From the IMG/VR virus record IMGVR_UViG_2571042653_000011: a stretch of 45,293 nt of DNA; one strand, given 5' to 3'. The stretch is from a virus. Lineage: Duplodnaviria; Heunggongvirae; Uroviricota; Caudoviricetes. The notes below the pieces were generated by a model. The model did no database searches. It was not told where the DNA came from and saw only the letters and a program-made list of their open reading frames with translations. How positions within the stretch are numbered: the first letter of the stretch is position 1; every line of letters starts with the position of its first letter. Shown piece after piece: positions 1 to 16,089 of this stretch. A program made the position numbers and the translations under genes.

Positions 1-573
1 ATGTTTTGCGAAGAAAAAGTAGCTCAAATGGCTGCATACCTACTTCTTAAGCGAGGTGGGCGCATGGCATATCTGAAATTGATGAAGCTGCTCTATCTGT
101 CTAACCGCAAGTCGATTTTGAAGCATGGCAGGATGATCGGCGAAGATAGCCTTTACTCTATGAAATTTGGTCCAGTCATGTCGAATACGCTGAACTTGAT
201 TCGTGGTAAGGCTGAAGGTATTGGTGACTACTGGTACAACCTGATAGAGACGAACGGGCATGATGTGTTGTTGCGTTCAGATCCGAGGGAAATGGATGCA
301 GACGAGGTCTTTGATGAGTTGAGCCGTGCAGATATCCGGATTTTAGATGAAATCTATTCTCTGTATGGGCATATGAACCGATTTGATCTCGCAAACATGA
401 CGCATTTAGAAAGCGTTTGTCCAGAGTGGCACAATCCTGGCAATTCTCGTAAGCCTATAGACCTGAAAGAAATGCTGATCAGTGAGGGTAAAAGCGAGGA
501 TGAGGCTAATCGTATAATTGGCAAAATGGAAGAATCTCAGAAACTTAAGGAATTTTCTTTGCAATTATCATGA
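1..573 (+). CDS. Panacea (DUF4065)-like domain protein, putative antitoxin-type component
   Basis: 190-aa ORF starting at the window edge; motifs KLMKLLYL and KFGPV resemble the DUF4065/Panacea (SocA/GepA-like) family as recalled; stop overlaps the next ORF's start (ATGA). May be 5'-truncated by the window. Confidence 0.5.
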   Translation: MFCEEKVAQMAAYLLLKRGGRMAYLKLMKLLYLSNRKSILKHGRMIGEDSLYSMKFGPVMSNTLNLIRGKAEGIGDYWYNLIETNGHDVLLRSDPREMDADEVFDELSRADIRILDEIYSLYGHMNRFDLANMTHLESVCPEWHNPGNSRKPIDLKEMLISEGKSEDEANRIIGKMEESQKLKEFSLQLS

Positions 574-989
574 CGGATTATCAGCCATACAGGAAAGGAA
601 CTGTGCTTGCCCCAACTGGGCCATGCAATCATCTTCATGTGATTTGTAATGATCCTGTTTATTACCCCGTTAACGATTGTTATTGTGTTTTAGTTGTTAA
701 TATTTCTAGTATCAAGGATGGTGTCCCCCACGATCCGTCTTGCGTCTTGAATTCTGGTGATCATCGCTTTATCAAGCATCCAAGTTATGTTGTTTACGCT
801 GAAGCTATAATTTGGCGAGTGGATAACATGGTTAGAAAGCAGCGATCGGGTGAGATTTCCGTTCATGATGATATGCCAGAAGCTACATTCAATAGAATTC
901 TGGACGGTTTTGATATATCTGATGAAGTTACGCCAAAGAACCTTAAATTTAAAAATAAATATTGCGTATCATCTATTGATGATGAGTAA
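570..989 (+). CDS. Hypothetical protein, translationally coupled partner of the Panacea-like gene (candidate toxin/effector)
   Basis: 139-aa ORF; ATG at 570 overlaps the upstream TGA; no Shine-Dalgarno of its own, consistent with coupling; AT-rich by eye; no family recognised. Confidence 0.45.
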   Translation: MTDYQPYRKGTVLAPTGPCNHLHVICNDPVYYPVNDCYCVLVVNISSIKDGVPHDPSCVLNSGDHRFIKHPSYVVYAEAIIWRVDNMVRKQRSGEISVHDDMPEATFNRILDGFDISDEVTPKNLKFKNKYCVSSIDDE

Positions 990-1028
990 ACAACAGGAAT
1001 TGTTTCGGTATAGCTTCTGGAGTTTTCT

Positions 1029-1202
1029 ATGGAAGATCAAAAAGCAACCAAGCCACAGGTTAAGTTCGACACAATGAAAGCATTCGCAGGTATGGGTGCT
1101 GCTGTTGAAGTTCTGATGAAGGCTGCTCCTAATGCGTTCACTCACGCTACTGTCTCTGGTAAAGAGCAGCAGGGTAAGCTTCGTCGTCGCAAAGCAGCAT
1201 GA
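1029..1202 (+). CDS. Small hypothetical protein (57 aa)
   Basis: ATG at 1029 preceded by GGAG; ends 20 nt before a strong intrinsic terminator; below the ORF-track length cutoff, translated by hand. Confidence 0.3.
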   Translation: MEDQKATKPQVKFDTMKAFAGMGAAVEVLMKAAPNAFTHATVSGKEQQGKLRRRKAA

Positions 1203-1223
1203 TCATAGCTGGTGCTTTTTGAA

Positions 1224-1248
1224 AACCCGCCTTTAGGCGGGTTTTTTC
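1224..1248. terminator. Bidirectional rho-independent terminator between convergent genes
   Basis: Hairpin ACCCGCC-TTTA-GGCGGGT followed by TTTTTT on the plus strand, with an A-run upstream giving a T-run on the minus strand. Confidence 0.7.
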
Positions 1249-1249
1249 T

Positions 1250-1531
1250 TTAGTGATGTTCTTTGCCCTTCTGTTTGCCTGTTCTGACCTGTTCCCACTC
1301 GATACGTCCTTCTTCTCGTCTTTTGTCTATGTATTCCGCAAGATCCTGAATATTGATGCAACGTTTTGCTTTTTGTGATGTACCGATGCGATATGTAGGT
1401 ACAGGCAACTTACAAGCGTTTGCTTTTGCTTCTGCTGTGGCTGGACTCATACCAAAGTATTTTTGACTAACTGCTGAGAGTTCAATGTTTGGGGTATTGA
1501 ATTCAGCCATCAGTAAAAACAAGGTGTTCAT
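1250..1531 (-). CDS. Excisionase-like DNA-binding protein (DUF1233/PrtN-like, tentative)
   Basis: ORF 1250-1558; start assigned to the internal ATG (MNTLFLL...) which has GGAG 6 nt upstream; family resemblance is from memory. Confidence 0.5.
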   Translation of the reverse strand: MNTLFLLMAEFNTPNIELSAVSQKYFGMSPATAEAKANACKLPVPTYRIGTSQKAKRCINIQDLAEYIDKRREEGRIEWEQVRTGKQKGKEHH

Positions 1532-1567
1532 AATTTTCTCCATCAAAACCGGCTGCACCCGGGAAAA

Positions 1568-2140
1568 TCATAATTCTGTGCTGGTGGCAGGAATTAATTT
1601 CTGCCAGATAGCGGAAACATATTTTGCCTGATGACGGGCATCAGCCAGGGCGTTGTGCCGTTCGCCATCGAAAGGCATGTCCATTTTGGGGTCGAATCCG
1701 ATGGAACGCCCAAGCGTAACGATCGTGCGTACATCGTGGTCATTCCAGTACGCCCACGGGCAGATTTGTCCTGCTCGCTCGTAAGCTCCACGTAAAATTA
1801 CGTTGTCGAAGGTGGCCCCGTTACCCCAGACTTTTAAATATTTCGTATTGGCTGCGTGCCGGTTAATGAAATGATTTAGTTCTGAGAGAGCATCGCTGAT
1901 CGACAAAGTATCATCAATACAGATTGCAGCTCGTGCTTCAGGGCTTTGTTTCAACCACCACAGGATGGTATCGCCGTCAGGTGTAGCTCCTTGCCCCATA
2001 GCACTTTCCAGGCTAACAACCGTATAGAATTCTTGTCCGATGTCTCCGGTTTCTGGAGTGAAGAACACCGCGCCAATGGAAACGATCGGTGCATCCTTAT
2101 TTTTCCCCATCGTCTCAAGGTCGATCATTAAGTTGTTCAT
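1568..2140 (-). CDS. 3'-5' exonuclease (DnaQ-like DEDD family)
   Basis: DxE motif (MIDLETMG) near the N-terminus and a C-terminal H...D motif; strong SD (GGAGGTGA) before the ATG; start overlaps the upstream gene's stop. Confidence 0.75.
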   Translation of the reverse strand: MNNLMIDLETMGKNKDAPIVSIGAVFFTPETGDIGQEFYTVVSLESAMGQGATPDGDTILWWLKQSPEARAAICIDDTLSISDALSELNHFINRHAANTKYLKVWGNGATFDNVILRGAYERAGQICPWAYWNDHDVRTIVTLGRSIGFDPKMDMPFDGERHNALADARHQAKYVSAIWQKLIPATSTEL

Positions 2141-2898
2141 CACTTCACCTCCTGCGGCGGTTCCGGTAGCGGCATCCAGTGAGTTGCTTGCTCAATACCA
2201 TTACCCGGCTTAATCGTTGCATCTCCTCTCCGAAAGGTGCTTCCGGTATAGCGTGCGGAGCATATTAGCGGTTCAACCAGAGAGCTATCGAAATTCACCG
2301 AAATAAGCACGTTCTGGCCCTTTTCAGGCATTCGATCACTACAGCTTATCCAACCATCCGGAGTTACCGGATAGTTGCCAGCCAGTGCGTTCTGCAATCG
2401 TTCCAGCTTAACGTATTCCTGAACCCTGTTTCCGTCGCACGCCTGAAGCCATTGCACAGCCTTTTGCGCATCAGTGTGAAAGGTACAAGTGCGTCCATCC
2501 TCAAATTGCATTTCGTAAAGGTCAGCAACCTGTTCAAAGTGCGTTTGTGGCAAGTTGTAAGTTTGGTTTACAGGTTGGCCTCCCTGAAGCATGGCGGCGC
2601 GGTGACACCAGATAATCCAGCCAAGCGCCATATCCCATGCCATGTATTCTCTATCACCATTTTTTGCCCTGCGGCGATCTACAGATTCCCCGAAACGCTT
2701 CTCCATAAATAATTCATAGGCTGCCCGTTCATCCGATACTGCTGCCAGCGATGCCAGTGCAATTTTAAATGCGGTAAGTATGTTGTTAACCTGACCTATT
2801 TCGAATGCTATTTCACTACATACAAACGATTTATCGTCTATTATCGACTCAATTCCGGTAATCGTGTTCTGTAACCATTCTTTGGTAATAGTATTCAT
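2140..2898 (-). CDS. DUF551-domain phage protein
   Basis: 252 aa; C-terminal segment WISCSDRMPE...HWMPLPEPP resembles DUF551; SD AAGGTGA upstream of the ATG. Confidence 0.65.
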   Translation of the reverse strand: MNTITKEWLQNTITGIESIIDDKSFVCSEIAFEIGQVNNILTAFKIALASLAAVSDERAAYELFMEKRFGESVDRRRAKNGDREYMAWDMALGWIIWCHRAAMLQGGQPVNQTYNLPQTHFEQVADLYEMQFEDGRTCTFHTDAQKAVQWLQACDGNRVQEYVKLERLQNALAGNYPVTPDGWISCSDRMPEKGQNVLISVNFDSSLVEPLICSARYTGSTFRRGDATIKPGNGIEQATHWMPLPEPPQEVK

Positions 2899-2900
2899 AA

Positions 2901-3092
2901 CTATTTCACCTTAATCTCAACATTTCGCAGCTTTAGCTCTACTGGCAGGTCTGACTTTCCTGTTAATGCTAATGCGAGATTTTCAGGAGTAATGAGAGCA
3001 GTTATTGTTTTCCCCCTCGCCAGACGAATAATCATTCGTATCTCGCAATCGTCACATGCTCCCGGTCGAACAATTGAGATTTGTCCGTTCAT
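2901..3092 (-). CDS. Hypothetical small phage protein (63 aa)
   Basis: Tightly packed between the Ea22-like and DUF551 genes in the same leftward operon. Confidence 0.4.
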   Translation of the reverse strand: MNGQISIVRPGACDDCEIRMIIRLARGKTITALITPENLALALTGKSDLPVELKLRNVEIKVK

Positions 3093-3093
3093 C

Positions 3094-3648
3094 TCACTTC
3101 CCCTTCACACCAATGTTGGCGGCGGCGCGCTCGGCTTCACTTTGTTCCCAAAACCACTTGTGAAGCGCCATAAGCTTTTCGTCAATCGGTGCATATTTGC
3201 GATTAAAGTAGGCCTGAGCATCTTTCTCAGATTCGTCCGGTAATTCGCCAGGGCCAAACAGTGTGTTATAAATCCATGCCAGTCCGCTCTCAGCGTCGCC
3301 AGTTGCCTGCCATTCGATAATGGCAGCCTGCATGACCAGAATGTTTTTCCCGATTAATAGGTCCAGTTCTTTGTACCGGTTGCGGATGTATGCATTCTCG
3401 CTTTGTAATTCAGCGTTTCGCTTCTCTGCTGCTTCCAGCTCATCCAGCAGCGCCAAGACGGTGGCAGGATTGGCGGCGGCTATGAATCGTTTATTGGCGC
3501 GATTATCTGGTCCTGAGCATGATGCTATGTAGTAATTGGCGTTCAGTCCGGCATCGGCAATTACTACATGGTAGTCATCAGCACACCATTCGCCTGGTGT
3601 TGCATTTTCTGCCGCCAGTCGCAGAGCCTGATAGTTAATCTCGCTCAC
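3094..3648 (-). CDS. Ea22-like early protein
   Basis: 184 aa with central coiled-coil; GTG start preceded by consensus SD AAGGAGG at 6 nt; N-terminus MSEINYQALR resembles Ea22-like prophage proteins (recall). Confidence 0.55.
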   Translation of the reverse strand: MSEINYQALRLAAENATPGEWCADDYHVVIADAGLNANYYIASCSGPDNRANKRFIAAANPATVLALLDELEAAEKRNAELQSENAYIRNRYKELDLLIGKNILVMQAAIIEWQATGDAESGLAWIYNTLFGPGELPDESEKDAQAYFNRKYAPIDEKLMALHKWFWEQSEAERAAANIGVKGK

Positions 3649-3884
3649 TGGTTGCCTCCTTTACGGATCTGCGCTGCGATGCGCGAAAAAAAAGACTCCC
3701 GCGTATGACTGTTAAGAGCTGGCGCGAACGCTGCGTTAAGAACGGCAGCATCACAGCCGTCATCGATATAGAGCGCAATTTTTTTCTCCAGGCGCGCTTT
3801 GGCTTCCTGCAACTGCATACCCCGGCACGCACGCGGGATATACTCAGCAATTTGAGCGATAGATTTTTCGTTCTGTTTAAACAT
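3645..3884 (-). CDS. Hypothetical phage protein (79 aa)
   Basis: ATG with SD GAGGTGA; stop overlaps the downstream start. Confidence 0.45.
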   Translation of the reverse strand: MFKQNEKSIAQIAEYIPRACRGMQLQEAKARLEKKIALYIDDGCDAAVLNAAFAPALNSHTRESFFSRIAAQIRKGGNQ

Positions 3885-4080
3885 GCTTCACCTCGATAGG
3901 CTTGATGGTGTCGATCAGTAGTCGGAGGCGCGTATTTTCTGCAAAGTGGCGGCGTCCGGTTTCTTTGTGGTAAAACTCGTTTTTGCCGACGACCCACATC
4001 CGCTCTGTCTGGTGAAGTTTTTTTACCTGCGGGCCGTCTTTGGTGATCACAATGCCGGTATGGGTTTTTACGATTGTCAT
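3877..4080 (-). CDS. Hypothetical phage protein (67 aa)
   Basis: ATG overlaps the stop of the upstream PAPS-reductase-like gene (ATGA). Confidence 0.45.
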   Translation of the reverse strand: MTIVKTHTGIVITKDGPQVKKLHQTERMWVVGKNEFYHKETGRRHFAENTRLRLLIDTIKPIEVKHV

Positions 4081-4955
4081 GCCACCACCTCTTCGAATTT
4101 CAATTCCAATTGATCACCCCAGATTTCACATGACTCTGAACACGAGCCGGTATCGAATCGCCTGGCTTGCACCATCGCTTGATACAAATTTCTGTAGTCG
4201 CTGTCGGCATACATTCTGGCAATCCCGTCAAGGCTCAGATGACCACGGTACATAACGTCTTTATTTGTCTTTCGGTGACCATCCCGGACGTGTTTACCTG
4301 TAACCAGCTCATTAAAAACTCGCATCAGACCAGGTTCGTCTTTACATGCAAGCCCCAGCTTTTGCGTGGACTTTTTGATGCAGAAAACACAGTTCCCGAG
4401 GTGCTCCGGGATTTGCAAATCAAAAGGTTGTTTATGCCACCACCGGATAACATCCGAGTTATCAAAATCAGATAGCTCGGCAAGATACCGGACGCCCGAT
4501 TTCGGTTTCAGCCTACGAGGTTCGTCTGCACGAATACCCAGCCATGTGATGTAATTCCCTCGTCCGAAATGGTCATCGCAGTATTTTGTGAAGGGGGTGA
4601 GTTTTAATCTGTCAGTGCAGAACGCGCCGCCGATGTATGGCGTGCCATATTTTTTTACCATGTCCATAAACGGTTTAAGCACCGGCATTCGTGTCTGAAT
4701 ATCCTTTGGTTCCCATTCCGTATAACCATTTGGCTGCCCAAGCTCTGGATTTATATCGACCTGCAACACAGTTAGCGGTATGCCCCAGAACTTCACAACC
4801 TCCCGAATAAAGCGGTATGTCAGCGGATGTTCGCAACCGGTATCCATAAAGATGTAGCAGACGTTATTGCCAGCCTTTCTTTGTTCTTCCATCAGGTGAA
4901 CAAGATATGCAGATGTTCTCCCGCCAGAAAAACTAACTACATGAGTTATGCACAT
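4077..4955 (-). CDS. Phosphoadenosine phosphosulfate (PAPS) reductase family protein (PP-loop ATP pyrophosphatase fold)
   Basis: 292 aa; N-terminal PP-loop motif SFSGGRTS; overlaps the 3' end of the upstream HD-domain gene by 10 nt. Confidence 0.75.
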   Translation of the reverse strand: MCITHVVSFSGGRTSAYLVHLMEEQRKAGNNVCYIFMDTGCEHPLTYRFIREVVKFWGIPLTVLQVDINPELGQPNGYTEWEPKDIQTRMPVLKPFMDMVKKYGTPYIGGAFCTDRLKLTPFTKYCDDHFGRGNYITWLGIRADEPRRLKPKSGVRYLAELSDFDNSDVIRWWHKQPFDLQIPEHLGNCVFCIKKSTQKLGLACKDEPGLMRVFNELVTGKHVRDGHRKTNKDVMYRGHLSLDGIARMYADSDYRNLYQAMVQARRFDTGSCSESCEIWGDQLELKFEEVVA

Positions 4956-5482
4956 TTGCGTAATTCCGATAACTCGTTAAAACGTTCCATAAACATCCCG
5001 TAGGCATGGCCTGGTGACAGTGGAATAACTTTGAACATCTCTGTTGCCGGGATGCCTTCCAGTACAGGCCAGAAAGAGCCATCATCAAGCCCGAGATCGC
5101 GGCGTTCGGTTGCCAGCATAATGAGATCGGCATATTTCACTGGCGTGCTCATAACAGGAGGTAACCCGTATTTCTCACGGATTACGGCGTCTATTTTTTC
5201 TTCCATCCGTTTATAGTCAGGAAGAGGTCGTTTCAGTGGCGCGGGGATGTCCTGGCAATATGCTTCTGTTGCATCATGCATTAACGCTTCGAAAGCAAAC
5301 TCCTGCGGTACCAGCTGGCTGCAAAGCACCGCATGTTGGGCGACGCTGTAGAAGTGTGAAAGATGCCCTGCAAAGCGACAGATATTTGAGAGGGAAACTG
5401 CGATATCGTTAATCACGATGTCGTCTTTATTTATCTTGTCATAATAAAAATGCTTCCCGGAAAAAGTTTTAATAAATGACAT
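4946..5482 (-). CDS. yfdR: HD-domain phosphohydrolase, YfdR-like 5'-deoxynucleotidase
   Basis: 178 aa from the ATG at 5482 (GGAG 7 nt upstream); HD motif (ALMHDATE); length and P-Q-R gene order match the CPS-53 prophage yfdPQR set as recalled. Confidence 0.65.
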   Translation of the reverse strand: MSFIKTFSGKHFYYDKINKDDIVINDIAVSLSNICRFAGHLSHFYSVAQHAVLCSQLVPQEFAFEALMHDATEAYCQDIPAPLKRPLPDYKRMEEKIDAVIREKYGLPPVMSTPVKYADLIMLATERRDLGLDDGSFWPVLEGIPATEMFKVIPLSPGHAYGMFMERFNELSELRKCA

Positions 5483-5609
5483 TTTGTTCTCCACGTATAT
5501 GCGCTGCACCGCGCTGAATTCTGGTAAAAGGAAGCTCTCACCATCCGGTGATTATTGAGTTAATTACGTTTCCATAAATGCCCCCGCAGGGGCATTTGCA
5601 GTAATGAAA

Positions 5610-6434
5610 TCAGGCGGTGAAAGTACCAATAAAGGTTTCGACTTTGCTGTCTTTGAATTTCTCAACAAGCAGATCACGAAATTCGTTAGCCATTTCTTCC
5701 TGCACCGCTTCCAGCTGAATAATGCGCAGAACCAGTACAGGACGATCGCCAGTGATAATGCTGAGGCGTAATTTAAACGGACGTTCTTTCAGGCCTTCAA
5801 ACGGAACGCATTTAAATTCAAATGCCACTGGCATAATGTCTTTGGTCTTCGCTTCGACTGACTCCATCAGGGAGCGTTTGCCGCTGAAGTCATTATCTTC
5901 AAAATCAGCTGTCTGGTTCGCTTCAATTGTGATTTTACGGATCGCCGCAGCCGCTTTGGTTGCCTGAATGGCGTCACCATTAGCATCAAAGCCCACAAGG
6001 TAGTCGGCCCAGTCTTCAATCCATTCTGCCAGTGACTTCTGGGAGTTACGCTCGCCGTTAACAGACAACAGGGCAGAGAACGGTGCTGTCTTTTTCAGTT
6101 TGAGAGTGGCGGTGTTATCTGCGTGACCTGGTTCATCGATAGTACCCAGGTTAAGTACACTGACGGCACGCATATTATCGGCGTCGATAAAGCAGCGGGT
6201 GCCTTCATCTGCAAGATCTTTAGAATAACGGGTAAAATCATCGATGCTGGCAGTGGAAAGTGCACCACGGAAACGGAAGCGATTTAAATTAAATTTTTCC
6301 AGATCATGAATGCGGAAATTCTCAGGCAATGCCACAGCATCGGCACCAATCTTACTGATAATTTCATTAACACCCTGAGCAGAAATAAGGGCATGAATTT
6401 GATTAATTGCGGTTGCGTCTAAGTTCTGAGACAT
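5610..6434 (-). CDS. yfdQ: YfdQ-like protein (DUF2303)
   Basis: 274 aa, same length as E. coli CPS-53 YfdQ (recall); sits between the yfdP-like and yfdR-like genes. Confidence 0.6.
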
Positions 6435-6499
6435 AATAAGTCCTCACTATATAAAGATATTCAATGATGAGATAAATAATCAGTTAATTAAGAACGATA

Positions 6500-6862
6500 T
6501 TAATGACCTGCTGCGCGGAGTTTTCCGTCAGGCTCACCGGCAAGAGTCAGTAATTGTCCCTGGTCTTCCTGCAGAATAGTCAGGCGACCACCGCGATTGA
6601 CATACATCGGCGTTTCGGTGGTGTCTTCTTCGGAAATTTTCCCGCGGTTAGTCGGGCGAACATATGAGAGTTTGTGTTTTATTTTCACACGGTTCTCATC
6701 AAACGGTTCGATTTCCAGGTTGAGCGAGACCTTACCTTTGGTTTTCGTGTTCATCACACCGGAAGCGACTTCACTGAGAACTGCGCCGATTTTGGTTTCA
6801 AATACGCCGCCGTCCAGCTCCCCGATAAATGCCTGCACATCAGTACTGTGTTCGCTAGCCAT
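6500..6862 (-). CDS. yfdP: YfdP-like early protein; first gene of the leftward operon
   Basis: 120 aa from the ATG at 6862 (MASEHSTD...) with SD GAGGAG 7 nt upstream; the longer track ORF to 7048 has a TTG start, no SD, and would translate the structured leader. Confidence 0.5.
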   Translation of the reverse strand: MASEHSTDVQAFIGELDGGVFETKIGAVLSEVASGVMNTKTKGKVSLNLEIEPFDENRVKIKHKLSYVRPTNRGKISEEDTTETPMYVNRGGRLTILQEDQGQLLTLAGEPDGKLRAAGH

Positions 6863-6910
6863 TTTGCTGCTCCTCATCATATCGACCCTGCAAGGTCGGT
6901 TGGTTTCTCC

Positions 6911-7009
6911 ACAAAACAGAGAAGAACACCTGCGGTGACTGCCGCCCGGATGGATTGGGTTATGAGCCCGTCGTCCGGTGATGCTCTTCTCTGTTTTGTA
7001 AAAAGAGCG
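6911..7009 (-). promoter_or_regulatory. Structured leader of the leftward transcript: boxA-like element followed by a long hairpin (nut/put-like candidate)
   Basis: On the minus strand CGCTCTTTTTA (plus 6999-7009) is immediately followed by a 15-bp inverted repeat (arms 6911-6925 and 6985-6999) around a 59-nt GC-rich loop; lies between the PL candidate and the first gene. Confidence 0.3.
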
Positions 7010-7203
7010 GTACCAGCCGGAAGCAAGTGTACAAACTGGTACCGCCAAAGCAGTGGCTGTTGTGGTGACCGGTGCTGATCTCCGGCTTGCGGTTATTTCA
7101 GACTCTCACGGGCGTTTAATTGCCCCGCCGAACAGCTCTTTTCCGCAATAGCTGCAATGTCTTTCGCGCATCAGCCTGCGCATTCACCACAACTCTAAAA
7201 ACA

Positions 7204-7257
7204 AATGTAGGATATCCAACATGTAGGTGTCAAGAGTTTATGTTGGTTATCCTACAT
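7204..7257 (-). promoter_or_regulatory. Left operator/promoter region (OL/PL candidate)
   Basis: Minus-strand TTGACA (plus 7228-7233), 18-bp spacer, TACATT (plus 7204-7209); overlapped by operator 18-mers ATGTAGGATATCCAACAT (7205-7222) and ATGTTGGTTATCCTACAT (7240-7257) sharing the half-site ATGTAGG. Confidence 0.55.
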
Positions 7258-7273
7258 AAAAAGATAGGCTCAT

Positions 7274-7299
7274 AAAAAAACCGGGGATACCCCGGTTTT
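7274..7299 (-). terminator. Intrinsic terminator downstream of the repressor gene (bidirectional shape)
   Basis: A7 then hairpin CCGGGG-ATA-CCCCGG then TTTT; on the minus strand the hairpin is followed by T7, 20 nt past the cI-like stop. Confidence 0.7.
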
Positions 7300-7319
7300 G
7301 CGATAGTGAGGAAGATGTG

Positions 7320-7973
7320 TCAAAAATCCATTATTACTTGTTTGACAAGACCAACTATTCTGCAGTTCTCACCGCATTCAATAGTTTTATAGTTAGGATT
7401 TAGTGGGACGAGATACCTGTTCGGCCAGTCCTCAACAAATTTTTTGAGTGTCGCTTCTTGCCCACCATTGATATGGGCAACAACGATTTTTCCGTTAATA
7501 CACTCTGTATCAATAATATCTGGCTCTACGATAACGATAGAACCTTCTGGTATCGATGGTGAGCCGAGGGGATTGGTCATTGAATCACCACGGACCCGTA
7601 GTGCAAATGCCATTTCTGATACAAGGGCGGTAGTATAAACCCACTCTTCAGCATCTTCTTTCCTGACACCAGGCTCCGTCATTGTCCATGAACCCGCCTG
7701 AACCCACGAGATGAGGGGGACTTTTTTAACTGCGAATATTTCAGGTTTTAGATTTATCTTTGGTTCAGGCGAGCCTTTTCCGCTAACAAGCCACAGAGGA
7801 TCGCATTTAAGTGCGTTGGCTAGGGCTTGAAGGTTGGCTCCATTTGGTTGGTAGTCGTCCTTTTCCCATCCAGTAACCGTGACACGGTTCACACCAGTCA
7901 AATCAGCCAGTGCTTGTTGTGTCAGGTTCAGTTCTTTTCGCCTTTGGCGAATACGATCACTCATGTTCATCAT
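7320..7973 (-). CDS. CI-like prophage repressor (HTH_XRE N-terminal domain plus S24 LexA-like peptidase domain)
   Basis: N-terminal HTH (RIRQRRKELNLTQQALADLTGV) and C-terminal S24 motifs (GDSM ... KK); start is ambiguous among ATGs at 7973, 7970 and 7964 because operators overlap the 5' end. Confidence 0.85.
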   Translation of the reverse strand: MMNMSDRIRQRRKELNLTQQALADLTGVNRVTVTGWEKDDYQPNGANLQALANALKCDPLWLVSGKGSPEPKINLKPEIFAVKKVPLISWVQAGSWTMTEPGVRKEDAEEWVYTTALVSEMAFALRVRGDSMTNPLGSPSIPEGSIVIVEPDIIDTECINGKIVVAHINGGQEATLKKFVEDWPNRYLVPLNPNYKTIECGENCRIVGLVKQVIMDF

Positions 7974-8037
7974 GTAGGCAATCCTACCACATGCCAATGT
8001 AGGATTCTTGACATTGGCATGTTGGATATCCTACATT
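7972..8037 (+). promoter_or_regulatory. Right operator/promoter region (OR/PR candidate, with PRM presumably interleaved)
   Basis: TTGACA (8008-8013), 18-bp spacer, TACATT (8032-8037) upstream of the cro-like ATG at 8069; operator copies at 7972-7992 and 8019-8036 (the latter is the exact reverse complement of the OL 18-mer); 10-bp inverted arms at 7991-8000 and 8011-8020. Confidence 0.55.
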
Positions 8038-8068
8038 CCTGCTTGACGTAATTTAACGGGAGACAGAA

Positions 8069-8266
8069 ATGCGGAAATCCGACGTGATTAATTATTTCGG
8101 CGGAGTTTGTAAAACCGCCGAAGCCCTAGGTATTAAGCATCCGTCTGTTTCAGAGTGGCCTGAGATTATTCCTGAAGGCCGAGCGTACCAGTTAGAAAAA
8201 ATTACTAACGGGAAACTGAAAGTTGACGTGTCTTTATATCAAAAGACTAACAGTGCTGCGGCATAA
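8069..8266 (+). CDS. Cro-like small HTH regulator
   Basis: 65 aa, divergent from the cI-like gene; GGGAG SD before the ATG; HTH-like segment GGVCKTAEALGIKHPSVSEW. Confidence 0.6.
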   Translation: MRKSDVINYFGGVCKTAEALGIKHPSVSEWPEIIPEGRAYQLEKITNGKLKVDVSLYQKTNSAAA

Positions 8267-8293
8267 AAACACCACAGAAATGAGGAATTAACC

Positions 8294-8878
8294 GTGGGTA
8301 AAGAACCTGAATGGAAAGTTGATAAACAACCAGCATGGCTGGTGGCAGCAATACGAAGAACGATTGCTGATTTACCTCATGGCTATGAGGAAGCAGCAGA
8401 AATTCTTGGTTTGTATAAATCTGATGATATCACCCCAGCAAAAGATCAATTGCATAACAGACTGCGTAGCGGTGGGGATCAAATTTTTCCACTTGAGTGG
8501 GCCATGGTTTTACAGGATGCCAGTGGTACCAGGCATGTAACAGATGCAATAGCCCGTCGTAGTAATGGGGTGTTTGTGCCGCTGGTGGTCATTGATGACA
8601 TTGACAATGGTGACATTAATCAGCGGCTGATGGAGTCAATAGAATGGATTGGCAAGCATTCCCAGTACTTACGCAAGGCAACTGCTGATGGAGTTATTGA
8701 CCAGGCTGAGCGTGAGCAAATCGAAGAGAACAGCTACCAAGTAATGGCGAAGTGGCAGGAGCATTTAACACTGTTATTTCGTGTTTTTTGTGCGCCGGAA
8801 AAGAGTAACGCCCGCGAGTGTGCAGCTCCGGGCGTCGTGGCGTCGATTGCTTCTGGTTGTGGAGAAACTAACGCATGA
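8294..8878 (+). CDS. CII-like regulatory protein (CP76/YmfL-like, tentative)
   Basis: 194 aa, GTG start with SD TGAGGA; position directly after cro; family assignment is from memory. Confidence 0.4.
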
Positions 8879-9213
8879 ACAGTTTAACAACACACTACCG
8901 TCGCTCGCAACTGATTGCGCTTCCTGTACCGGGTGGAAAAGCGAAGGTGGAGTATTGCTATGCAGTGAATGTACCAGGTGACAGGGAAATTGTAACCCAC
9001 AGCTTTGCAGAGTGGGCTGTGGGTGATTTCAACCGGCAGAAGGAGACAGTCCTTTGCGACAAGTTAACCGCTGGTTCAAAGATCACTACGGAGTGCCCGT
9101 CAGAGTCATTCGTTGGGAGCCGGAAACACAACGGGTTATCTACCTCCGTGAAGGCTATGAACATGAATGCTTCAGTCCGCTCGAACAGTTTCGTCGTAAA
9201 TTCAGGGAAATAG
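8875..9213 (+). CDS. Hypothetical early protein (YmfM-like position)
   Basis: 112 aa; ATG overlaps the upstream stop; C-terminal half is Ser/Thr-rich and overlaps an alternative-frame ORF at 9054-9266. Confidence 0.35.
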
Positions 9214-9222
9214 AGGTCGGTC

Positions 9223-10215
9223 ATGAGCCTGTTAATGACATCCCAGCCCATTGTGATAAATCGTGATCTTGCATGCCGTATTGGTCTGAATGAGGCAATT
9301 GTGTTGCAGCAGCTTCATTACTGGCTGAATGAAACGAATTCAGGCACTGAGCATGGCGGAATTCGCTGGGTTTATAACACGACAGAACAGTGGCTGGAGC
9401 AGTTTCCGTTCTGGTCAGAGTCCACTCTGAAACGCACATTTGCAAGCCTGAAATCACTTGGGGTTTTGCGACGCGAGCAACTCAATAAATCGAAGCGTGA
9501 CATGACCAACTTCTACACGATCAACTATGAAAGTGAGCTTTTAGAAGAGGTCAAAGTGAACGAATCCATCAGGTCAAAATGCACTTCTCCATCGGGTCAA
9601 AGTGACCTGATGGATGGGCGCAAAATGACACGATCCATTGGTTCAAAACGACACGCTGTCATCGGGTCAAAATGGCCCAATGATCTTACAGAGAATACAA
9701 CAGAGATTACTACAGAGAATAAAACCTCTTCTCGTCCGGACGCTTCGCAACCGGACACGCAAACGGCTGAACAGGAGTTTTTAACTCGCCATCCTGATGC
9801 GGTTGTATTCAGCCCTAAAAAGCGCCAGTGGGGAACGCAGGATGATTTGACCTGCGCACAGTGGCTCTGGAAAAAAATCATCGCCCTGTACGAGCAGGCC
9901 GCCGAATGTGACGGCGAGGTGGTTCGTCCCAAAGAACCGAACTGGACAGCATGGGCAAACGAAATTCGCCTGATGTGTGTGCAGGATGGTCGTACTCACA
10001 AACAAATCTGCGAGATGTACAGCCGCGTCAGCCGCGATCCGTTCTGGTGCCGTAACGTGCTCAGCCCGTCGAAGTTGCGGGAAAAATGGGATGAGCTTTC
10101 CCTGCGCTTATCGCCGTCCGTCAGCACGCACACAGAAAAACGTGAAGACCCGTACTTCAAAGCCAGTTACGACAACGTGGACTACAGCCAGATCCCGGCA
10201 GGATTCAGGGGGTGA
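9223..10215 (+). CDS. Replication initiation protein (O-like position; N-terminal HTH)
   Basis: 330 aa; N-terminal HTH-like segment (LACRIGLNEAIVLQQLHYW ... LKSLGVLRR); internal iteron array; SD AGAGGT before the ATG. Confidence 0.6.
   Translation: MSLLMTSQPIVINRDLACRIGLNEAIVLQQLHYWLNETNSGTEHGGIRWVYNTTEQWLEQFPFWSESTLKRTFASLKSLGVLRREQLNKSKRDMTNFYTINYESELLEEVKVNESIRSKCTSPSGQSDLMDGRKMTRSIGSKRHAVIGSKWPNDLTENTTEITTENKTSSRPDASQPDTQTAEQEFLTRHPDAVVFSPKKRQWGTQDDLTCAQWLWKKIIALYEQAAECDGEVVRPKEPNWTAWANEIRLMCVQDGRTHKQICEMYSRVSRDPFWCRNVLSPSKLREKWDELSLRLSPSVSTHTEKREDPYFKASYDNVDYSQIPAGFRG
9549..9674. repeat. Iteron array (candidate replication origin) inside the replication gene
   Basis: Direct repeats of the form CATCGGGTCAAARTG at 9567-9581, 9590-9604, 9636-9650 and 9660-9674, with degenerate copies near 9549 and 9613; spacing about 23 bp; followed by an A/T-rich stretch at 9680-9725. 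Confidence 0.55.
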
Positions 10216-10217
10216 TC

Positions 10218-10310
10218 ATGAGTCTGTTAAATGACGTTCAGAAATTCATTGAAGCCCATCCGGGCTGTACTTCCGGAGACATTGCGGATGCTTTTTACGT
10301 GGGGGCTTAA
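10218..10310 (+). CDS. Very small ORF (30 aa) bridging the replication gene and the methyltransferase
   Basis: ATG with SD AGGGGG; its stop overlaps the methyltransferase ATG; could be only a coupling spacer. Confidence 0.2.
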   Translation: MSLLNDVQKFIEAHPGCTSGDIADAFYVGA

Positions 10311-10963
10311 TGAGTAATAAATATTGCCAGGCGCTGGTAGAACTGCGGAACAAACCAGCCCATGAACTGAAGGAAGTGGGCGATCAGTGGCGCACGCCGG
10401 ACAACATTTTCTGGGGAATTAACACCTTGTTTGGTCCGTTTGTTCTGGATCTGTTCACTGACGGTGATAACGCCAAATGTGCCGCGTATTACACGGCGGA
10501 AGACAACGCGCTGGCGCATGACTGGTCAGAACGTCTTGCGGAGCTTAAAGGTGCTGCCTTTGGTAATCCCCCATACAGCCGCGCCAGTCAGCATGAGGGG
10601 CAATACATCACCGGCATGCGTTACATCATGAAACATGCCAGTGCCATGCGTGATAAGGGCGGGCGCTATGTTTTCCTGATCAAAGCTGCCACCAGCGAAG
10701 TGTGGTGGCCGGAAGATGCGGACCATATTGCTTTTATTCGCGGGCGTATTGGTTTTGAACTGCCTGCCTGGTTTATCCCGAAGGATGAGAAGCAGGTGCC
10801 GACAGGCGCTTTCTTCGCTGGTGCTATTGCTGTTTTCGACAAGACCTGGAAGGGACCGGCAATCAGCTACATCGGGCGCGATGAACTTGAGGCATGTGGT
10901 GAGGCGTTTCTGGCGCAGGTTCGCCAGCAGGCAGAAAAACTTGTCAGGGAGATGGCGGCATGA
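10310..10963 (+). CDS. Phage N6-adenine DNA methyltransferase (Dam-like, orphan)
   Basis: 217 aa with catalytic NPPY motif (FGNPPY); no adjacent restriction endonuclease. Confidence 0.8.
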   Translation: MSNKYCQALVELRNKPAHELKEVGDQWRTPDNIFWGINTLFGPFVLDLFTDGDNAKCAAYYTAEDNALAHDWSERLAELKGAAFGNPPYSRASQHEGQYITGMRYIMKHASAMRDKGGRYVFLIKAATSEVWWPEDADHIAFIRGRIGFELPAWFIPKDEKQVPTGAFFAGAIAVFDKTWKGPAISYIGRDELEACGEAFLAQVRQQAEKLVREMAA

Positions 10964-11286
10964 CGACGTTAACTCAATGCCAGCAGCAGGTGCTGGATAT
11001 GCTGATTTCTTACCAGCAAGAGCGTGGCTTTCCGCCAACCAATCAGGAGGTGGCAACCATGCTGGGATACCGTTCGGTGAATGCAGCGGTGGAGCATCTT
11101 CGCGCACTGGAGAAAAAAGGCGTCATCACGATAAAGCGTGGCGTGGCCCGGGGGATAACGCTTCATACCGCAGTGAAGGACGACGACAGCGAAGCGGTCG
11201 GTATCATCCGCGCACTGCTTGCCGGTGAGGAGAACGCCAGGCTGCGTGCAGCCCACTGGTTACATGAGAGGGGCCTGAAAGTATGA
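10960..11286 (+). CDS. LexA N-terminal-domain-like winged-helix DNA-binding protein (no peptidase domain)
   Basis: 108 aa; N-terminus resembles the LexA DNA-binding domain (LTQCQQQVLDMLISYQQERGFPPTNQEVATMLGYRS); start overlaps the upstream stop. Confidence 0.5.
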   Translation: MTTLTQCQQQVLDMLISYQQERGFPPTNQEVATMLGYRSVNAAVEHLRALEKKGVITIKRGVARGITLHTAVKDDDSEAVGIIRALLAGEENARLRAAHWLHERGLKV

Positions 11287-11672
11287 AGTTGATCCTGCCT
11301 TTCCCGCCCAGTGTGAACACGTACTGGCGACACCCCAACAAAGGGGCATTTGCTGGTAAGAGCCTGATAAGCGAGGCGGGGCGAAAATTTCAGAGCGCGG
11401 CGTGCGCAGCAATAGTTGAGCAGTTACGTCGTCTGCCGAAACCAACGTCGGCACCTGCTTCAGTGGAGATCGTGTTGTTTCCTCCGGATAACCGGATCCG
11501 CGATCTGGACAACTATAACAAGGCGCTGTTTGACGCCCTGACCCACGCGGGTGTGTGGGAAGACGACAGACAGGTGAAAAGAATGCTGGTGGAGTGGGGA
11601 CCGGTTATCCCGAAAGGGAAGGTCGAGATCACTATCAGTAAGTATGAGAAACCGGCGGGTGCAGCCGCCTGA
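11283..11672 (+). CDS. rusA: Holliday junction resolvase RusA
   Basis: 129 aa; characteristic RusA motifs (DLDNYNKALFDALT, VWEDDRQV). Confidence 0.85.
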   Translation: MKLILPFPPSVNTYWRHPNKGAFAGKSLISEAGRKFQSAACAAIVEQLRRLPKPTSAPASVEIVLFPPDNRIRDLDNYNKALFDALTHAGVWEDDRQVKRMLVEWGPVIPKGKVEITISKYEKPAGAAA

Positions 11673-11691
11673 TTAAGAGGAGAAACGAAGT

Positions 11692-12501
11692 ATGAATAAT
11701 CTGATGGTCATTGATGGTATTGAAGTTCGTCGTGATGCTTATGGGCGTTACAGCCTGAACGATCTGCATCGCGCAGCAGTAGCATCTGGTGCAAATGCCA
11801 GAACCAAGGAGCCAGGAAAGTTTCTTTCCAGCCAACAAACTGTTGAGCTTGTTCATGAATTGACCAACACCCAGAATTTGGGTGTTGACCCGGTGAGTGT
11901 GATTCATGGGGGAAATGAACGGGGAACGTATGTCTGCAAGGAACTGGTGTATGCCTATGCAATGTGGATCAGCCCGTCATTCCATCTGAAGGTGATCCGT
12001 ACTTTCGACATGGTAACCAGCGCACCGGAAAAATTATCCGGACAGGCTGCTGACAAGATGCAGGCTGGTGTGATTCTGCTGGACTTTATGCGCCGGGAAT
12101 TAAACCTGTCTAACTCTTCAGTGCTTGGTGCCTGTCAGAAACTCCAGGAGGCTGTTGGCTTACCGAATCTGGCACCGCGCTATGCCATTGATGCTCCTGC
12201 TGACGCGCCTGATGGCTCAAGTCGTCCTACGCTGTCGCTGAGTGCACTGCTGAAACAGTATGGTATCCGCCTTACGGCTAATCAGGCATATCACCAGATG
12301 GCGAAGCTGGGGATCGTTGAACAACGCGAACGATACAGCCGTACCGCGATTAACAACATCAAAAAATTCTGGTCGCTGACAGCGAAAGGTTGCATGTTCG
12401 GCAAGAACATCACCAGTCCCGCAAATGCGCGCGAGACGCAGCCGCATTTCTTCGAATCCCGATTCCCTGAGCTGTTAAAGCTGCTCGATACCGTTCATTG
12501 A
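11692..12501 (+). CDS. KilA-N domain protein (antirepressor-like)
   Basis: 269 aa; N-terminal KilA-N-like region; strong SD AGAGGAGA. Confidence 0.6.
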   Translation: MNNLMVIDGIEVRRDAYGRYSLNDLHRAAVASGANARTKEPGKFLSSQQTVELVHELTNTQNLGVDPVSVIHGGNERGTYVCKELVYAYAMWISPSFHLKVIRTFDMVTSAPEKLSGQAADKMQAGVILLDFMRRELNLSNSSVLGACQKLQEAVGLPNLAPRYAIDAPADAPDGSSRPTLSLSALLKQYGIRLTANQAYHQMAKLGIVEQRERYSRTAINNIKKFWSLTAKGCMFGKNITSPANARETQPHFFESRFPELLKLLDTVH

Positions 12502-12502
12502 G

Positions 12503-13498
12503 GTGACCGTGAGAGCACTACTGACCCCTGAAATTGCCCCGCGTATGGGGATCGTATTGTTCAGGCCAGGTTCAGAGCTGATGCCCCTGTTTATGCAGGG
12601 GCGTGTCCTGCTGGAGCCTGAGCCGGAACGTTATTCATCTTTCGCCAGTGGTGCCGTTCCGGCGGCATCACAACCGCTGGCGGATGATCCTGCCGTTCGG
12701 GCCGTGTTCCGCAATGAGGAAGTGATCCGTCGTGCTGGTGGCGTGGAATGTCTTGAAAGCTGGTTACTTCGTGAAAAAGGCTGCCAGTGGCCTCATTCCG
12801 ACTGGCACAGCGAGAACATGACAACAATGCGACACGCGCCGGGCGCAATCCGTCTGTGCTGGCACTGCGATAACCAGCTGCGCGATCAGTTCACGGAACG
12901 GCTGGAATCAATGGCAACGGATAACTGTGCCCGCTGGGTGTTGTCTGTTGTGCGTCGGGATCTCGGTTTTGATGACAGTCACGTTGTGACAATGCCGGAA
13001 CTGTGCTGGTGGCTGATTCGTAATGACCTGGCGGATGCCTTACCGGAAAGTGCAGCCCGTAAGGCACTGAGATTACCGAAGCCTGTTGTGCCGTCTGTCA
13101 CCCGGGAAAGTGACCTTGTGCCTTCGGTTCCTGCCACCAGCATCATCCAGGATAAGGCGAAAAAGGTGCTGGCGCTGAAAGTGGATCCGGAGTCGCCGGA
13201 GTCTTTTATGTTACGCCCAAAACGTCGCCGCTGGGTTAATGAAAAGTACACACGCTGGGTTAAGACACAGCCGTGTGCATGTTGTGGAAAGCCTGCTGAT
13301 GATCCCCACCACCTGATAGGCCACGGTCAGGGGGGAATGGGTACAAAAGCGCATGACCTCTTTGTGTTGCCTTTGTGCAGAAAGCATCACGACGAGCTGC
13401 ATGCGGATACCGTGGCATTTGAAGAGAAGTATGGCTCCCAGCTGGAGCTGATATTTCGTTTTATCGATCGTGCGCTGGCAATTGGCGTGCTGGCCTGA
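12503..13498 (+). CDS. DUF968 (YdfU-like) protein with HNH-like zinc-binding C-terminus
   Basis: 331 aa; C-terminal CACCGK...HHL...H...CRKHHDELH motif; GTG start at 12503 has a weak SD, true start may be downstream. Confidence 0.6.
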
Positions 13499-13515
13499 TT
13501 TTGTGGAGAACGTTG

Positions 13516-13881
13516 ATGCGTGATATTCAAATGGTTCTTGAACGTTGGGGGGCATGGGTGGCAAATAATCACGAGGATGTCACCTGGTCGTCTATTGCTG
13601 CAGGATTTAAAGGACTAATCCCTTCAAAAGTAAAATCCCGCCCGCAATGTTGTGACGATGATGCGATGATCATTTGTGGGTGCATGGCTCGCCTGAAAAA
13701 GAACAACAGCGATTTGCACGATTTATTAGTGGATTATTATGTAGGTGGTATGACGTTTATGGCGCTTGCCCGTAAACATGGGCGTTCTGATTGCTGGGTT
13801 GGGCGTTTATTGCAAAAGGCTGAAGGTGTAGTTGATGGCATGTTAATGATGTTAGAAATTGAGCTAGAGATGGATCGTTAG
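13516..13881 (+). CDS. Late-gene antitermination protein Q-like
   Basis: 121 aa from ATG 13516 (GGAGAA upstream); cysteine-rich segment ([16 protein letters not shown]); last gene of the early-right operon before the late region. Confidence 0.55.
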
Positions 13882-13965
13882 AAGACCTCTTATTGAGGGG
13901 GTAATTGAATCAGTTTAATGTGTGGGGAGTCGATTTATTCTCCCCATTTTATTTAATTAATTTAC

Positions 13966-14412
13966 TTAAGGTTTTAATTCATCAAGACGTTGTTGGATAG
14001 TGTTTTTGCTTGCGTTGTCTGTTATAGCCATTTGTTGTACTTGCCCCATTGCCATTTGAGTTTCCATCCACATATCGGCCCACACTTTTGTATCGTTATT
14101 AACTTGAGCGATAGTAAATCTGACTTTTGATACCGGGGTTGTTGAATAGGCATTGCCGATTAACATTTGTCCAAAAACAGCAGACCCGCCTTCCAGTTCT
14201 TTACCACATATAACACTGCTGTTATCAGCGTTGTAAATTATCAACCCTCTACTATTGCAGTAATTCACAAGGGCATCTTTGACTTTATCTTTTGTCGTAT
14301 TTTGATAAACCCCCTCAGGTTTTCCTGATTGAGTTTTTTTTATCAATGGTACGGAAGAAGTACAACCTGAAATGATAGTTGCGCTAAGTAATAGTACAGT
14401 CATTTTATTCAT
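13966..14412 (-). CDS. Lipoprotein (moron, unknown function)
   Basis: 148 aa; signal peptide with lipobox LLSATIISGC; opposite strand to flanking genes; AT-rich by eye. Confidence 0.6.
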   Translation of the reverse strand: MNKMTVLLLSATIISGCTSSVPLIKKTQSGKPEGVYQNTTKDKVKDALVNYCNSRGLIIYNADNSSVICGKELEGGSAVFGQMLIGNAYSTTPVSKVRFTIAQVNNDTKVWADMWMETQMAMGQVQQMAITDNASKNTIQQRLDELKP

Positions 14413-15036: not shown

Positions 15037-16089
15037 ATGAAAAATACTGTAAAAATAAACAGTGTTGATTTAATCAACGCTGATTGCCTGCATTTTATTC
15101 AGTCCCTGCCTGATGATTCCATTGACCTGATTGTTACCGATCCGCCGTACTTCAAGGTGAAACCCAACGGCTGGGACAATCAGTGGAAAGGGGACGAAGA
15201 TTACCTTAAGTGGCTGGACCACTGTCTGGCCCAGTTCTGGCGGGTGTTAAAACCTGCCGGAAGCCTTTACCTGTTCTGTGGGCATCGCCTGGCATCTGAT
15301 ATTGAGATCATGATGCGTGAACGTTTCAACGTGCTTAACCATATCATCTGGGCGAAGCCGTCCGGACGTTGGAATGGGTGTAATAAAGAAAGTCTGCGCG
15401 CATATTTTCCTGCCACAGAGCGCGTTCTGTTTGCTGAACATTACCAGGGGCCATATCGCGGCAAAAGTGACGGCTATGCGGCAAAAGAAAGGGAACTCAA
15501 ACAGCACATAATGGCACCGCTGATATCGTATTTCAGGGATGCTCGTGCCGAACTGGGTATAACGGCAAAACAAATTGCCGAAGCCACAGGTAAGAAAAAT
15601 ATGGTTTCCCACTGGTTTGGTGCCAGTCAGTGGCAGTTGCCGAATGAGGCTGACTATCGGAAGTTACAGGCACTGTTTTCCCGTATAGCGGCAGAGAAGT
15701 TTCAGGAACAACAACTGGAACAACCACACCACCAGCTGGTGGCATCTTATGATTCACTGAATCGCAAATATTCTGAATTGCTGGATGAGTTTAAATCTCT
15801 CCGGCGCTATTTCTCCGTATCAGTCTCCGTGCCTTATACCGATGTCTGGATGCATAAACCCGTTCAGTTCTACCCGGGTAAACATCCGTGTGAGAAACCG
15901 GCGGATATGCTCAGGCAAATAATCAATGCCAGTAGTCGACCTGGTGATCTGGTTGCTGATTTTTTTATGGGATCCGGTTCCACAATAAAAGCAGCAATGG
16001 CGCTGGGGCGTCGGGCCTTAGGTGTTGAGCTTGAGTCAGAGCGGTTTAACCAGACAGTGAAAGAGATAAACGAGCTGGTGGGGAAATAA
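15037..16089 (+). CDS. DNA methyltransferase, beta class (N6-adenine or N4-cytosine), orphan, in the late region
   Basis: 350 aa; DPPY motif (IVTDPPYF) near the N-terminus and SAM-binding FxGxG (FFMGSGST) near the C-terminus; no cognate nuclease nearby. Confidence 0.8.

Follow-up and report, generated by a model that had tools for sequence, protein, structure and literature searches.

We analysed a window of 45,293 nucleotides (nt), the IMG/VR virus record IMGVR_UViG_2571042653_000011, which looks like a complete Escherichia coli lambda-like prophage of the mEp460/SfV/CPS-53 type that keeps the early-left promoter PL and its operators. Four consecutive minus-strand genes, yfdP, yfdQ, yfdR and a NinC-family gene of the PAPS-reductase-like type (hereafter ninC), span positions 4077-6862, an interval bounded by the stop codon of the PAPS-like gene and the yfdP ATG. 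Locus comparisons across genomes indicate that these genes are separate, swappable cassettes and not one nucleotide-modifying pathway. The explanation that we favor, with somewhat better than even confidence, is that PL drives several early accessory functions that are independent of one another; confidence in its anatomy and evolution is high, and in its biochemistry moderate to low.

The DNA of the window is 100% identical to E. coli prophages in several complete genomes, among them strain KGu016, in which a dusA remnant adjoins the matching prophage. In the order of transcription the genes are yfdP (6500-6862; 120 amino acids), the upstream partner of yfdQ; yfdQ (5610-6434; 274 amino acids) of the DUF2303 family; yfdR (4946-5482; 178 amino acids), encoding an HD-domain phosphohydrolase with an intact H...HD...D motif; and ninC (4077-4955; 292 amino acids), encoding the PP-loop protein. 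The starts of the longest open reading frames (ORFs), a TTG at 7048 for yfdP and a GTG at 5509 for yfdR, lie too far upstream; the annotated, conserved start positions are 6862 and 5482. yfdR and ninC overlap by 10 nt, and ninC and the small ORF that follows it by 4 nt. All four genes are already known, named and annotated, and two of them have some experimental literature. The four family assignments made in an earlier note on this DNA held in the domain search: YfdQ matched Pfam PF10065 (DUF2303) with an E-value of 6e-93, residues 7-272 aligning to profile positions 2-269 of 269; YfdP homologues bear PF27127; and all four proteins had strong PHROG matches (phrog_204, YfdP, 1.8e-49; phrog_210, YfdQ, 5.9e-120; phrog_318, HD, 3.7e-110; phrog_424, PAPS-like, 5.9e-93). 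Likewise, its match of order and length to yfdPQR of the K-12 prophage CPS-53 was correct, the proteins being 98.3% (YfdP), 99.6% (YfdQ) and 97.8% (YfdR) identical to those of MG1655, with the same lengths and order.

The early-left location proposed in that note was supported as well. A promoter scan revealed a PL-like promoter (TTGACA-18-TACATT at 7233->7204, minus strand; 7204-7257 with its operators) just downstream of a cI-like repressor gene (7320-7997; S24 peptidase and helix-turn-helix), and two 18-bp palindromic operators, at 7205-7222 and 7240-7257, accompany this promoter. A PR-like promoter (8008->8037) lies in front of cro, and the two promoters are mirror copies of each other: the PL region and positions 7971-8037 form inverted-repeat arms of 32 nt that are 88% complementary, and one 18-bp operator, ATGTWGGWTATCCWACAT, present in four copies in total, overlaps both promoters. 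Since yfdP is the first gene after the PL-like promoter, the early-left placement is backed by sequence.

The single conserved four-gene module that the earlier note had proposed was not borne out. A viral-contig search for related loci gave solely near-identical E. coli loci, and genome contigs were used for diversity; we scanned one genome per species and tallied genes with hidden Markov models at the 80 yfdQ loci so obtained, which represent about 75 species and extend from Enterobacterales as far as Marinobacter and Photobacterium. yfdP was directly upstream of yfdQ in 79 of the 80 loci, the exception being truncated by a contig end (79/79 complete loci), yfdR was downstream of yfdQ in 57, and a PAPS-family gene was found in one. 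The slot after yfdR was occupied by ~30 distinct gene families across species, and in yfdR-less loci yfdQ was followed by genes for SSB, a DnaQ-like exonuclease, an HNH endonuclease, a C5-methyltransferase or an integrase. Among 5426 complete E. coli genomes, yfdPQR DNA was present in 3094 and all four genes in 272; junction queries against complete E. coli genomes returned yfdR-yfdS in 2282 and yfdR-ninC in 283. Based on these tallies, yfdP-yfdQ is the stable unit, yfdR a frequent add-on and ninC an occasional cassette. The borders of the cassette are visible in pairwise comparisons. Homology between the window and mEp460 covers 2545-4070 and 4948-7196, and the gap, with breakpoints at 4071 and 4947, coincides with the ninC ORF, in place of which mEp460 has yfdS; homology to ArgO145 takes in ninC as well as the small ORFs downstream of it and ends at 4957, the start of ninC. 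Such swaps at gene boundaries are classic lambdoid mosaicism.

The literature on K-12 suggests what yfdQ and yfdR may do. Noguchi and Katayama (2016; PMC4776307) reported that in K-12 the genes yfdQRT or yfdQRS, supplied in multicopy, suppress over-initiation and have an inhibitory effect on initiation at oriC, that the block needs both yfdQ and yfdR while yfdP is dispensable for it, and that purified K-12 YfdR binds DnaA via Phe46 of DnaA domain I. They also cite Zimmerman et al. (2008), according to whom K-12 YfdR binds nucleotides with much lower affinity than YfbR does. As the proteins of the window are nearly identical to those of K-12, these results can be transferred to it. The nucleotide-pool role suggested by the earlier note was thus not upheld, for the K-12 data point to DnaA and initiation and YfdR's affinities for nucleotides are low. 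YfdR of the window matched PDB 2gz4 (E-value 5e-13); it scored 23.7 bits against the Pfam YfbR-like family (PF12917), under the gathering threshold of 25.9, and 18.8 bits against NCBIfam PRK03826, for which the cut-off is 122. H50, H69-D70 and D119 were kept in at least 95% of 59 homologues, and because the HD motif is retained across this set, catalysis by YfdR probably still matters. A candidate for the third partner is encoded at 2140-2898 (minus strand): a 252-amino-acid protein that combines a YfdT-like segment (74% identity to K-12 YfdT across 61 amino acids) and a C-terminal DUF551 domain (Pfam E-value 4.7e-22), the family of YfdS. This single protein may carry the functions of both yfdS and yfdT of K-12. 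By analogy with K-12, the most likely role of YfdQ, YfdR and a partner of the DUF551/YfdT type during infection would be interference with DnaA-dependent initiation in the host.

The fourth gene has a well-known relative. A translated search of phage records showed that its product is identical to lambda NinC (Orf290) at 227 of 290 residues (78%), that ArgO145, Stx2a-converting phages and Shigella phage Ss-VASD carry the gene at 93%, and that relatives occur in hundreds of vibrio phages. Pfam PAPS_reduct matched with 37.1 bits against a cut-off of 22.5 over residues 5-72 only, a PDB profile search aligned at most ~100 N-terminal residues, and NCBIfam gave just weak sub-threshold matches for this protein and for YfdR. 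A weak match to 'PptA' (PDB 21fy; E-value 0.61) was not relied on. When 23 homologues were aligned, seven residues of the PP-loop SFSGGRxS (S8-S15) proved invariant, with S8 in at least 90%; six cysteines (113, 126, 189, 192, 272 and 276) are invariant, and a DTG motif is likewise conserved. The AlphaFold2 (AF2) model (pLDDT 84) had CysH/APS reductases as its closest folds (Foldseek E-value ~1e-4, probability 1.0), with ~19% identity and TM-scores of 0.35-0.47 to CysH, followed by the PP-loop folds of LarE, GMP synthase, TilS and NcsA. CysH is defined by a C-terminal ECGLH motif carrying the catalytic cysteine. This motif is absent from the C-terminus of the NinC-like protein, which reads ...DTGSCSESCE..., and alignments show that the protein retains the canonical SGGxxS PP-loop where CysH has SSSFGIQ. 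Sequence and model together place it in the PP-loop ATP pyrophosphatase superfamily. Since ECGLH is missing and the PP-loop is kept, and given the other motifs and the fold, we interpret it as an adenylating enzyme of the PP-loop type that may have an iron-sulfur (Fe-S) site, and not as a sulfate-assimilation gene. Copies at ~90% identity were also found at 74 places on E. coli plasmids (e.g. NZ_AP040955.1 and NZ_AP018809.1); the listed ninC-bearing plasmids are 95-130 kb, are probably phage-plasmids, and do not carry the gene next to yfdR.

The possible counter-defence role raised in the earlier note found support for this gene alone of the two enzymes it had paired. The NinC-like protein is 55% identical (156/283 residues, 96% of the query, E-value 1e-109) to the PAPS module of p0018 of Vibrio phage 44E38.1, a 479-amino-acid 'Dam methyltransferase with PAPS reductase domain'. 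When p0018 and its neighbour p0019 were transferred to a sister phage that was sensitive, the resulting recombinant evaded the Dnd (phosphorothioate) restriction of Vibrio crassostreae (Piel et al., bioRxiv 10.1101/2021.05.05.442762). The anti-Dnd connection of phage PAPS reductases is already in the literature: a 2026 study that cites this result (PMC13551039) treats them as DndC/SspD homologues and anti-Dnd candidates located in variable anti-defence hotspots, and a PAPS-domain protein is common to the four phosphorothioation systems that are known (PMC12914056). In the PADLOC defence library the NinC-like protein matched SspD (1.5e-15, residues 5-152), BrxP (7e-5) and DndC (9e-4), while YfdP, YfdQ and YfdR had no match there. 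Rosetta-stone fusions of NinC and Dam recur among the homologues, and a PF05869 Dam gene is also present in the window. Taken together, the homology makes a DndC/SspD-like role in counter-defence, against phosphorothioate-based restriction, probable for the NinC-like enzyme.

We therefore favor, at the confidence given above, no single pathway; the region is the promoter-proximal part of a repressor-controlled PL operon and contains three evolutionarily separate units. The first is the obligate gene pair yfdP-yfdQ. The second is yfdR, an HD phosphohydrolase gene that commonly, though not always, comes after this pair; by binding domain I of DnaA, YfdR, together with YfdQ and the DUF551/YfdT-type partner, would block initiation at oriC, so that initiation on the host chromosome would be shut down early after induction as part of host takeover. 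The third unit is a NinC-family PP-loop enzyme, probably with an Fe-S or metal site, recombined into the slot that normally holds yfdS; it would most likely act as a DndC/SspD-like ATP pyrophosphatase against Dnd, and possibly against Ssp or BREX type 4, perhaps by plugging into the phosphorothioation machinery of the host such that the phage DNA is marked as self. Because phosphorothioate synthesis requires a partner P-loop NTPase (DndD/SspC/BrxC; PMC12914056) and none was found nearby, use of the host's own partners is the simplest model. Extended to the whole family, lambda ninC included, this model becomes tentative, and we consider it an idea that could well fail: NinC would be a stand-alone DndC/SspD-type sulfur-inserting enzyme that hijacks the partners supplied by the host (IscS/DndA, DndD/E or SspB/C), and the self-marked phage DNA would defeat Dnd, Ssp or BREX type 4. 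A separate idea, equally tentative, is that YfdP-YfdQ may form a large assembly with a new fold that serves host takeover by acting on the replication initiator.

A number of points weigh against this explanation. Deletion of yfdQRST in K-12 was without phenotype, and the effect on DnaA was seen solely under multicopy expression of genes from a cryptic prophage (PMC4776307). Of the two partners that can replace each other in K-12, YfdS is missing from the window, and YfdP and YfdQ have no assigned biochemistry. As for the fourth gene, lambda ninC is dispensable on K-12, 'poorly understood' and without known phenotype. The escape of the vibrio phage from Dnd is not assignable to the PAPS domain alone, since this domain was fused to Dam and moved together with p0019. 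The matches to SspD and DndC are restricted to the N-terminal half of the NinC-like protein, and no P-loop NTPase partner was found in the left operon or adjoining ninC, whose neighbours are yfdR and small ORFs.

An alternative view of yfdP-yfdQ, with or without yfdR, is that they supply an unrecognised function in DNA recombination, repair or end protection in the place of the lambdoid Rec module. The cluster occupies the position of exo-bet-gam or erf, it is present in LLS, ST64B and other phages with 'no Rec module', deletion of yfdQ makes cells weakly sensitive to methyl methanesulfonate and hydrogen peroxide, and the neighbours in other species (SSB, DnaQ-like exonuclease, HNH and C5-methyltransferase) fit such a role. 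A homologue of YfdQ, identified by sequence match (E-value 8e-45), is deposited as PDB 9o7m, 'YfdQ Protein', with 36 chains, for which no publication was found; this count may reflect a large YfdQ assembly but fits equally well with many copies per asymmetric unit of the crystal. Yet ArgO145 carries yfdP-yfdQ in addition to a complete RecT/exonuclease/Gam/SSB module, searches of Pfam and NCBIfam revealed no nucleic-acid-binding domain, and a comparative study that lists the function of yfdP and yfdQ as unknown argues against their being a recombination module in disguise (PMC12315714). We consider a recombination function unlikely.

NCBIfam had no match for YfdP or YfdQ, the AF2 model of YfdQ had no whole-fold match, and a YfdP profile found no homologue in PDB; matches of YfdP alone to macro domains (E-values 0.17-0.25) were dismissed as chance. 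A DUF2303 profile retrieved 1806 relatives from 1.84 billion representatives, of which the best 150 were nearly all stand-alone proteins of ~250-300 amino acids, with no informative domain fusions. A few database proteins (P0131, P0193 and P0280) carry the YfdP (PF27127) and YfdQ (PF10065) domains in a single ORF; given their short length and near-identity to E. coli sequences, they probably arose in decayed prophages by deletion or frameshift and are not true fusions.

The counter-defence reading of NinC competes with the view that it is a PP-loop/Fe-S sulfurtransferase or adenylating enzyme acting on tRNA, or in a DNA modification other than phosphorothioation. LarE, TilS and NcsA, a [4Fe-4S] tRNA thiolase, are also among the fold matches, the six invariant cysteines agree with this view, and a DndD/SspC-type partner is not nearby; the top profile match, however, is SspD and not a tRNA enzyme, the nearest tested relative affects Dnd restriction, and the recurrent fusion partner is a DNA methyltransferase. 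Such an activity seems to us improbable, and a DndC/SspD-like role remains our preferred reading of this protein.

The view that YfdR, as an HD 5'-deoxynucleotidase, and the PP-loop enzyme act early in infection in one pathway of the nucleotide pool, or of a modified nucleotide or DNA base, corresponds to the functional pairing put forward in the earlier note. It draws on the 10-nt overlap and co-transcription of yfdR and ninC, on the recurrence of their junction in 283 complete E. coli genomes and on the conserved catalytic residues of YfdR, and a second example seems to exist in Atlantibacter sp. (positions 7325-8569 of locus L178), where a non-orthologous PAPS_reduct protein of 414 amino acids overlaps the end of the yfdR homologue. 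That protein has the PP-loop SAGKDS and matches SspD (7e-19) and BrxP (4e-14) in PADLOC, and we regard it as reuse of a hotspot. K-12 yfdR and yfdS, however, share the identical 10-nt overlap, yfdS follows yfdR ~8 times more often than ninC does in E. coli while ~30 other families do so across species, and the nucleotide affinities of K-12 YfdR are far below those of YfbR (PMC4776307). Moreover, NinC lacks an HD neighbour in lambda and in two further phages: in ArgO145, ninC comes after yfdP, yfdQ and an unrelated non-HD gene, and in Vibrio phage 44E38.1 the NinC-type gene lies among an O-like replication gene and genes for a DUF6475 protein, NinB and NinG, with no HD gene nearby. The pairing was thus not sustained, and we judge a shared pathway very unlikely. 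Overall, the earlier note was right about the families, the order, the location and a possible counter-defence role, while its module and its pairing were not supported, and it had missed the homology to lambda NinC and the DnaA literature.

That the PAPS-like gene is an auxiliary metabolic PAPS/APS reductase raising sulfate assimilation in the host is scarcely credible, since the Pfam PAPS_reduct match, the closest solved folds (CysH/APS reductases) and the database names that agree with it are outweighed by a match confined to residues 5-72, the low identity and TM-score to CysH, the absent ECGLH, a canonical PP-loop in place of the CysH sequence, and the location of ninC-type genes among DNA-metabolism genes, sometimes fused to Dam.

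Between PL and yfdP lies a structured leader of ~338 nt (6863-7200, minus strand) with a minimum free energy of -135 kcal/mol (z = -5.3 versus shuffles). Two hairpins stand out in it: one is terminator-like, with a U-run behind it, and the other has arms of 25 bp (inverted repeat 6911-6935/6975-6999). There is no N-like gene between PL and yfdP, an Rfam scan of positions 1-14000 returned nothing relevant in the leader, and the leader could act in attenuation or as an antitermination RNA of the put type. Another terminator-like G+C hairpin, AAAUGCCCCUGCGGGGGCAUUUAU (5574-5597, minus strand), recognised from the intergenic sequence and its RNA fold and absent from the output of the terminator scan, is located between yfdQ and yfdR and may attenuate yfdR and all genes downstream. 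Beyond ninC, two small co-transcribed ORFs (3645-4080, minus strand; 67 amino acids at 3877-4080 and 79 amino acids at 3645-3884) match phrog_1226 and phrog_1344; their relatives come after yfdS in mEp460 and after ninC in ArgO145.

Elsewhere in the prophage, the left end (1-989, plus strand) encodes a SocA/Panacea-domain antitoxin-like protein of 190 amino acids (Pfam E-value 1.8e-18), overlapped downstream by an ORF of 139 amino acids without a family match; lying between int and xis, the two may represent a moron of the toxin-antitoxin or defence kind. Two DNA methyltransferase genes are present on the plus strand, at 10310-10963 and 15037-16089; one is a PF05869 Dam in the right operon, with 28% identity to the Dam domain of the vibrio phage fusion with NinC, and the second, an N6_N4_Mtase, is encoded downstream of the gene for the Q antiterminator.

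The yfdPQR genes are extremely common and occur also in Stx-converting phages. Our analysis suggests that yfdP-yfdQ is best regarded as a pair, and yfdR as a candidate antagonist of DnaA at induction and not as a nucleotidase. An anti-phosphorothioate role of ninC, if true, would give a function to a classic 'unknown' gene of lambda, and the annotation 'PAPS reductase' should here not be taken to mean an auxiliary gene of sulfur metabolism.

Among the known systems to which the region was compared, CPS-53 (KpLE1) of K-12 shares with it the spacing of yfdPQR and 97% DNA identity over 4948-6881. K-12 continues with yfdS and yfdT, whereas the window has the NinC-family gene instead of yfdS, and its YfdT-like sequence is part of the DUF551 protein ~2 kb further on. 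YfdR resembles YfbR in its HD fold and metal-binding H...HD...D motif but falls under the Pfam YfbR-like cut-off, and K-12 YfdR has nucleotide affinities far below those of YfbR and binds DnaA. The NinC-like protein shares the PP-loop and all six conserved cysteines with lambda NinC, which is likewise non-essential and uncharacterised; lambda ninC, however, is flanked by ninB and ninD in the PR-transcribed nin region, while the gene of the window is in the PL operon after yfdR. CysH/APS reductase is its nearest solved fold, but the NinC-like protein is without ECGLH and keeps the glycine-rich PP-loop that CysH has lost. It has the same conserved motifs as p0018 of 44E38.1, which differs in its C-terminal Dam fusion, Dam (PF05869) being a separate gene of the right operon in the window, and in its location in a nin-like region (O-like gene, p0019/DUF6475, NinB and NinG); the escape from Dnd was seen with the vibrio gene, moved with p0019, and homology links the E. 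coli protein to it. Unlike DndC, SspD and BrxP, the NinC-like protein is small, stands alone in a phage and is without an adjacent NTPase, cysteine desulfurase or nickase, but it has in common with them a PP-loop domain of the PAPS-reductase type and cysteines compatible with an Fe-S site.

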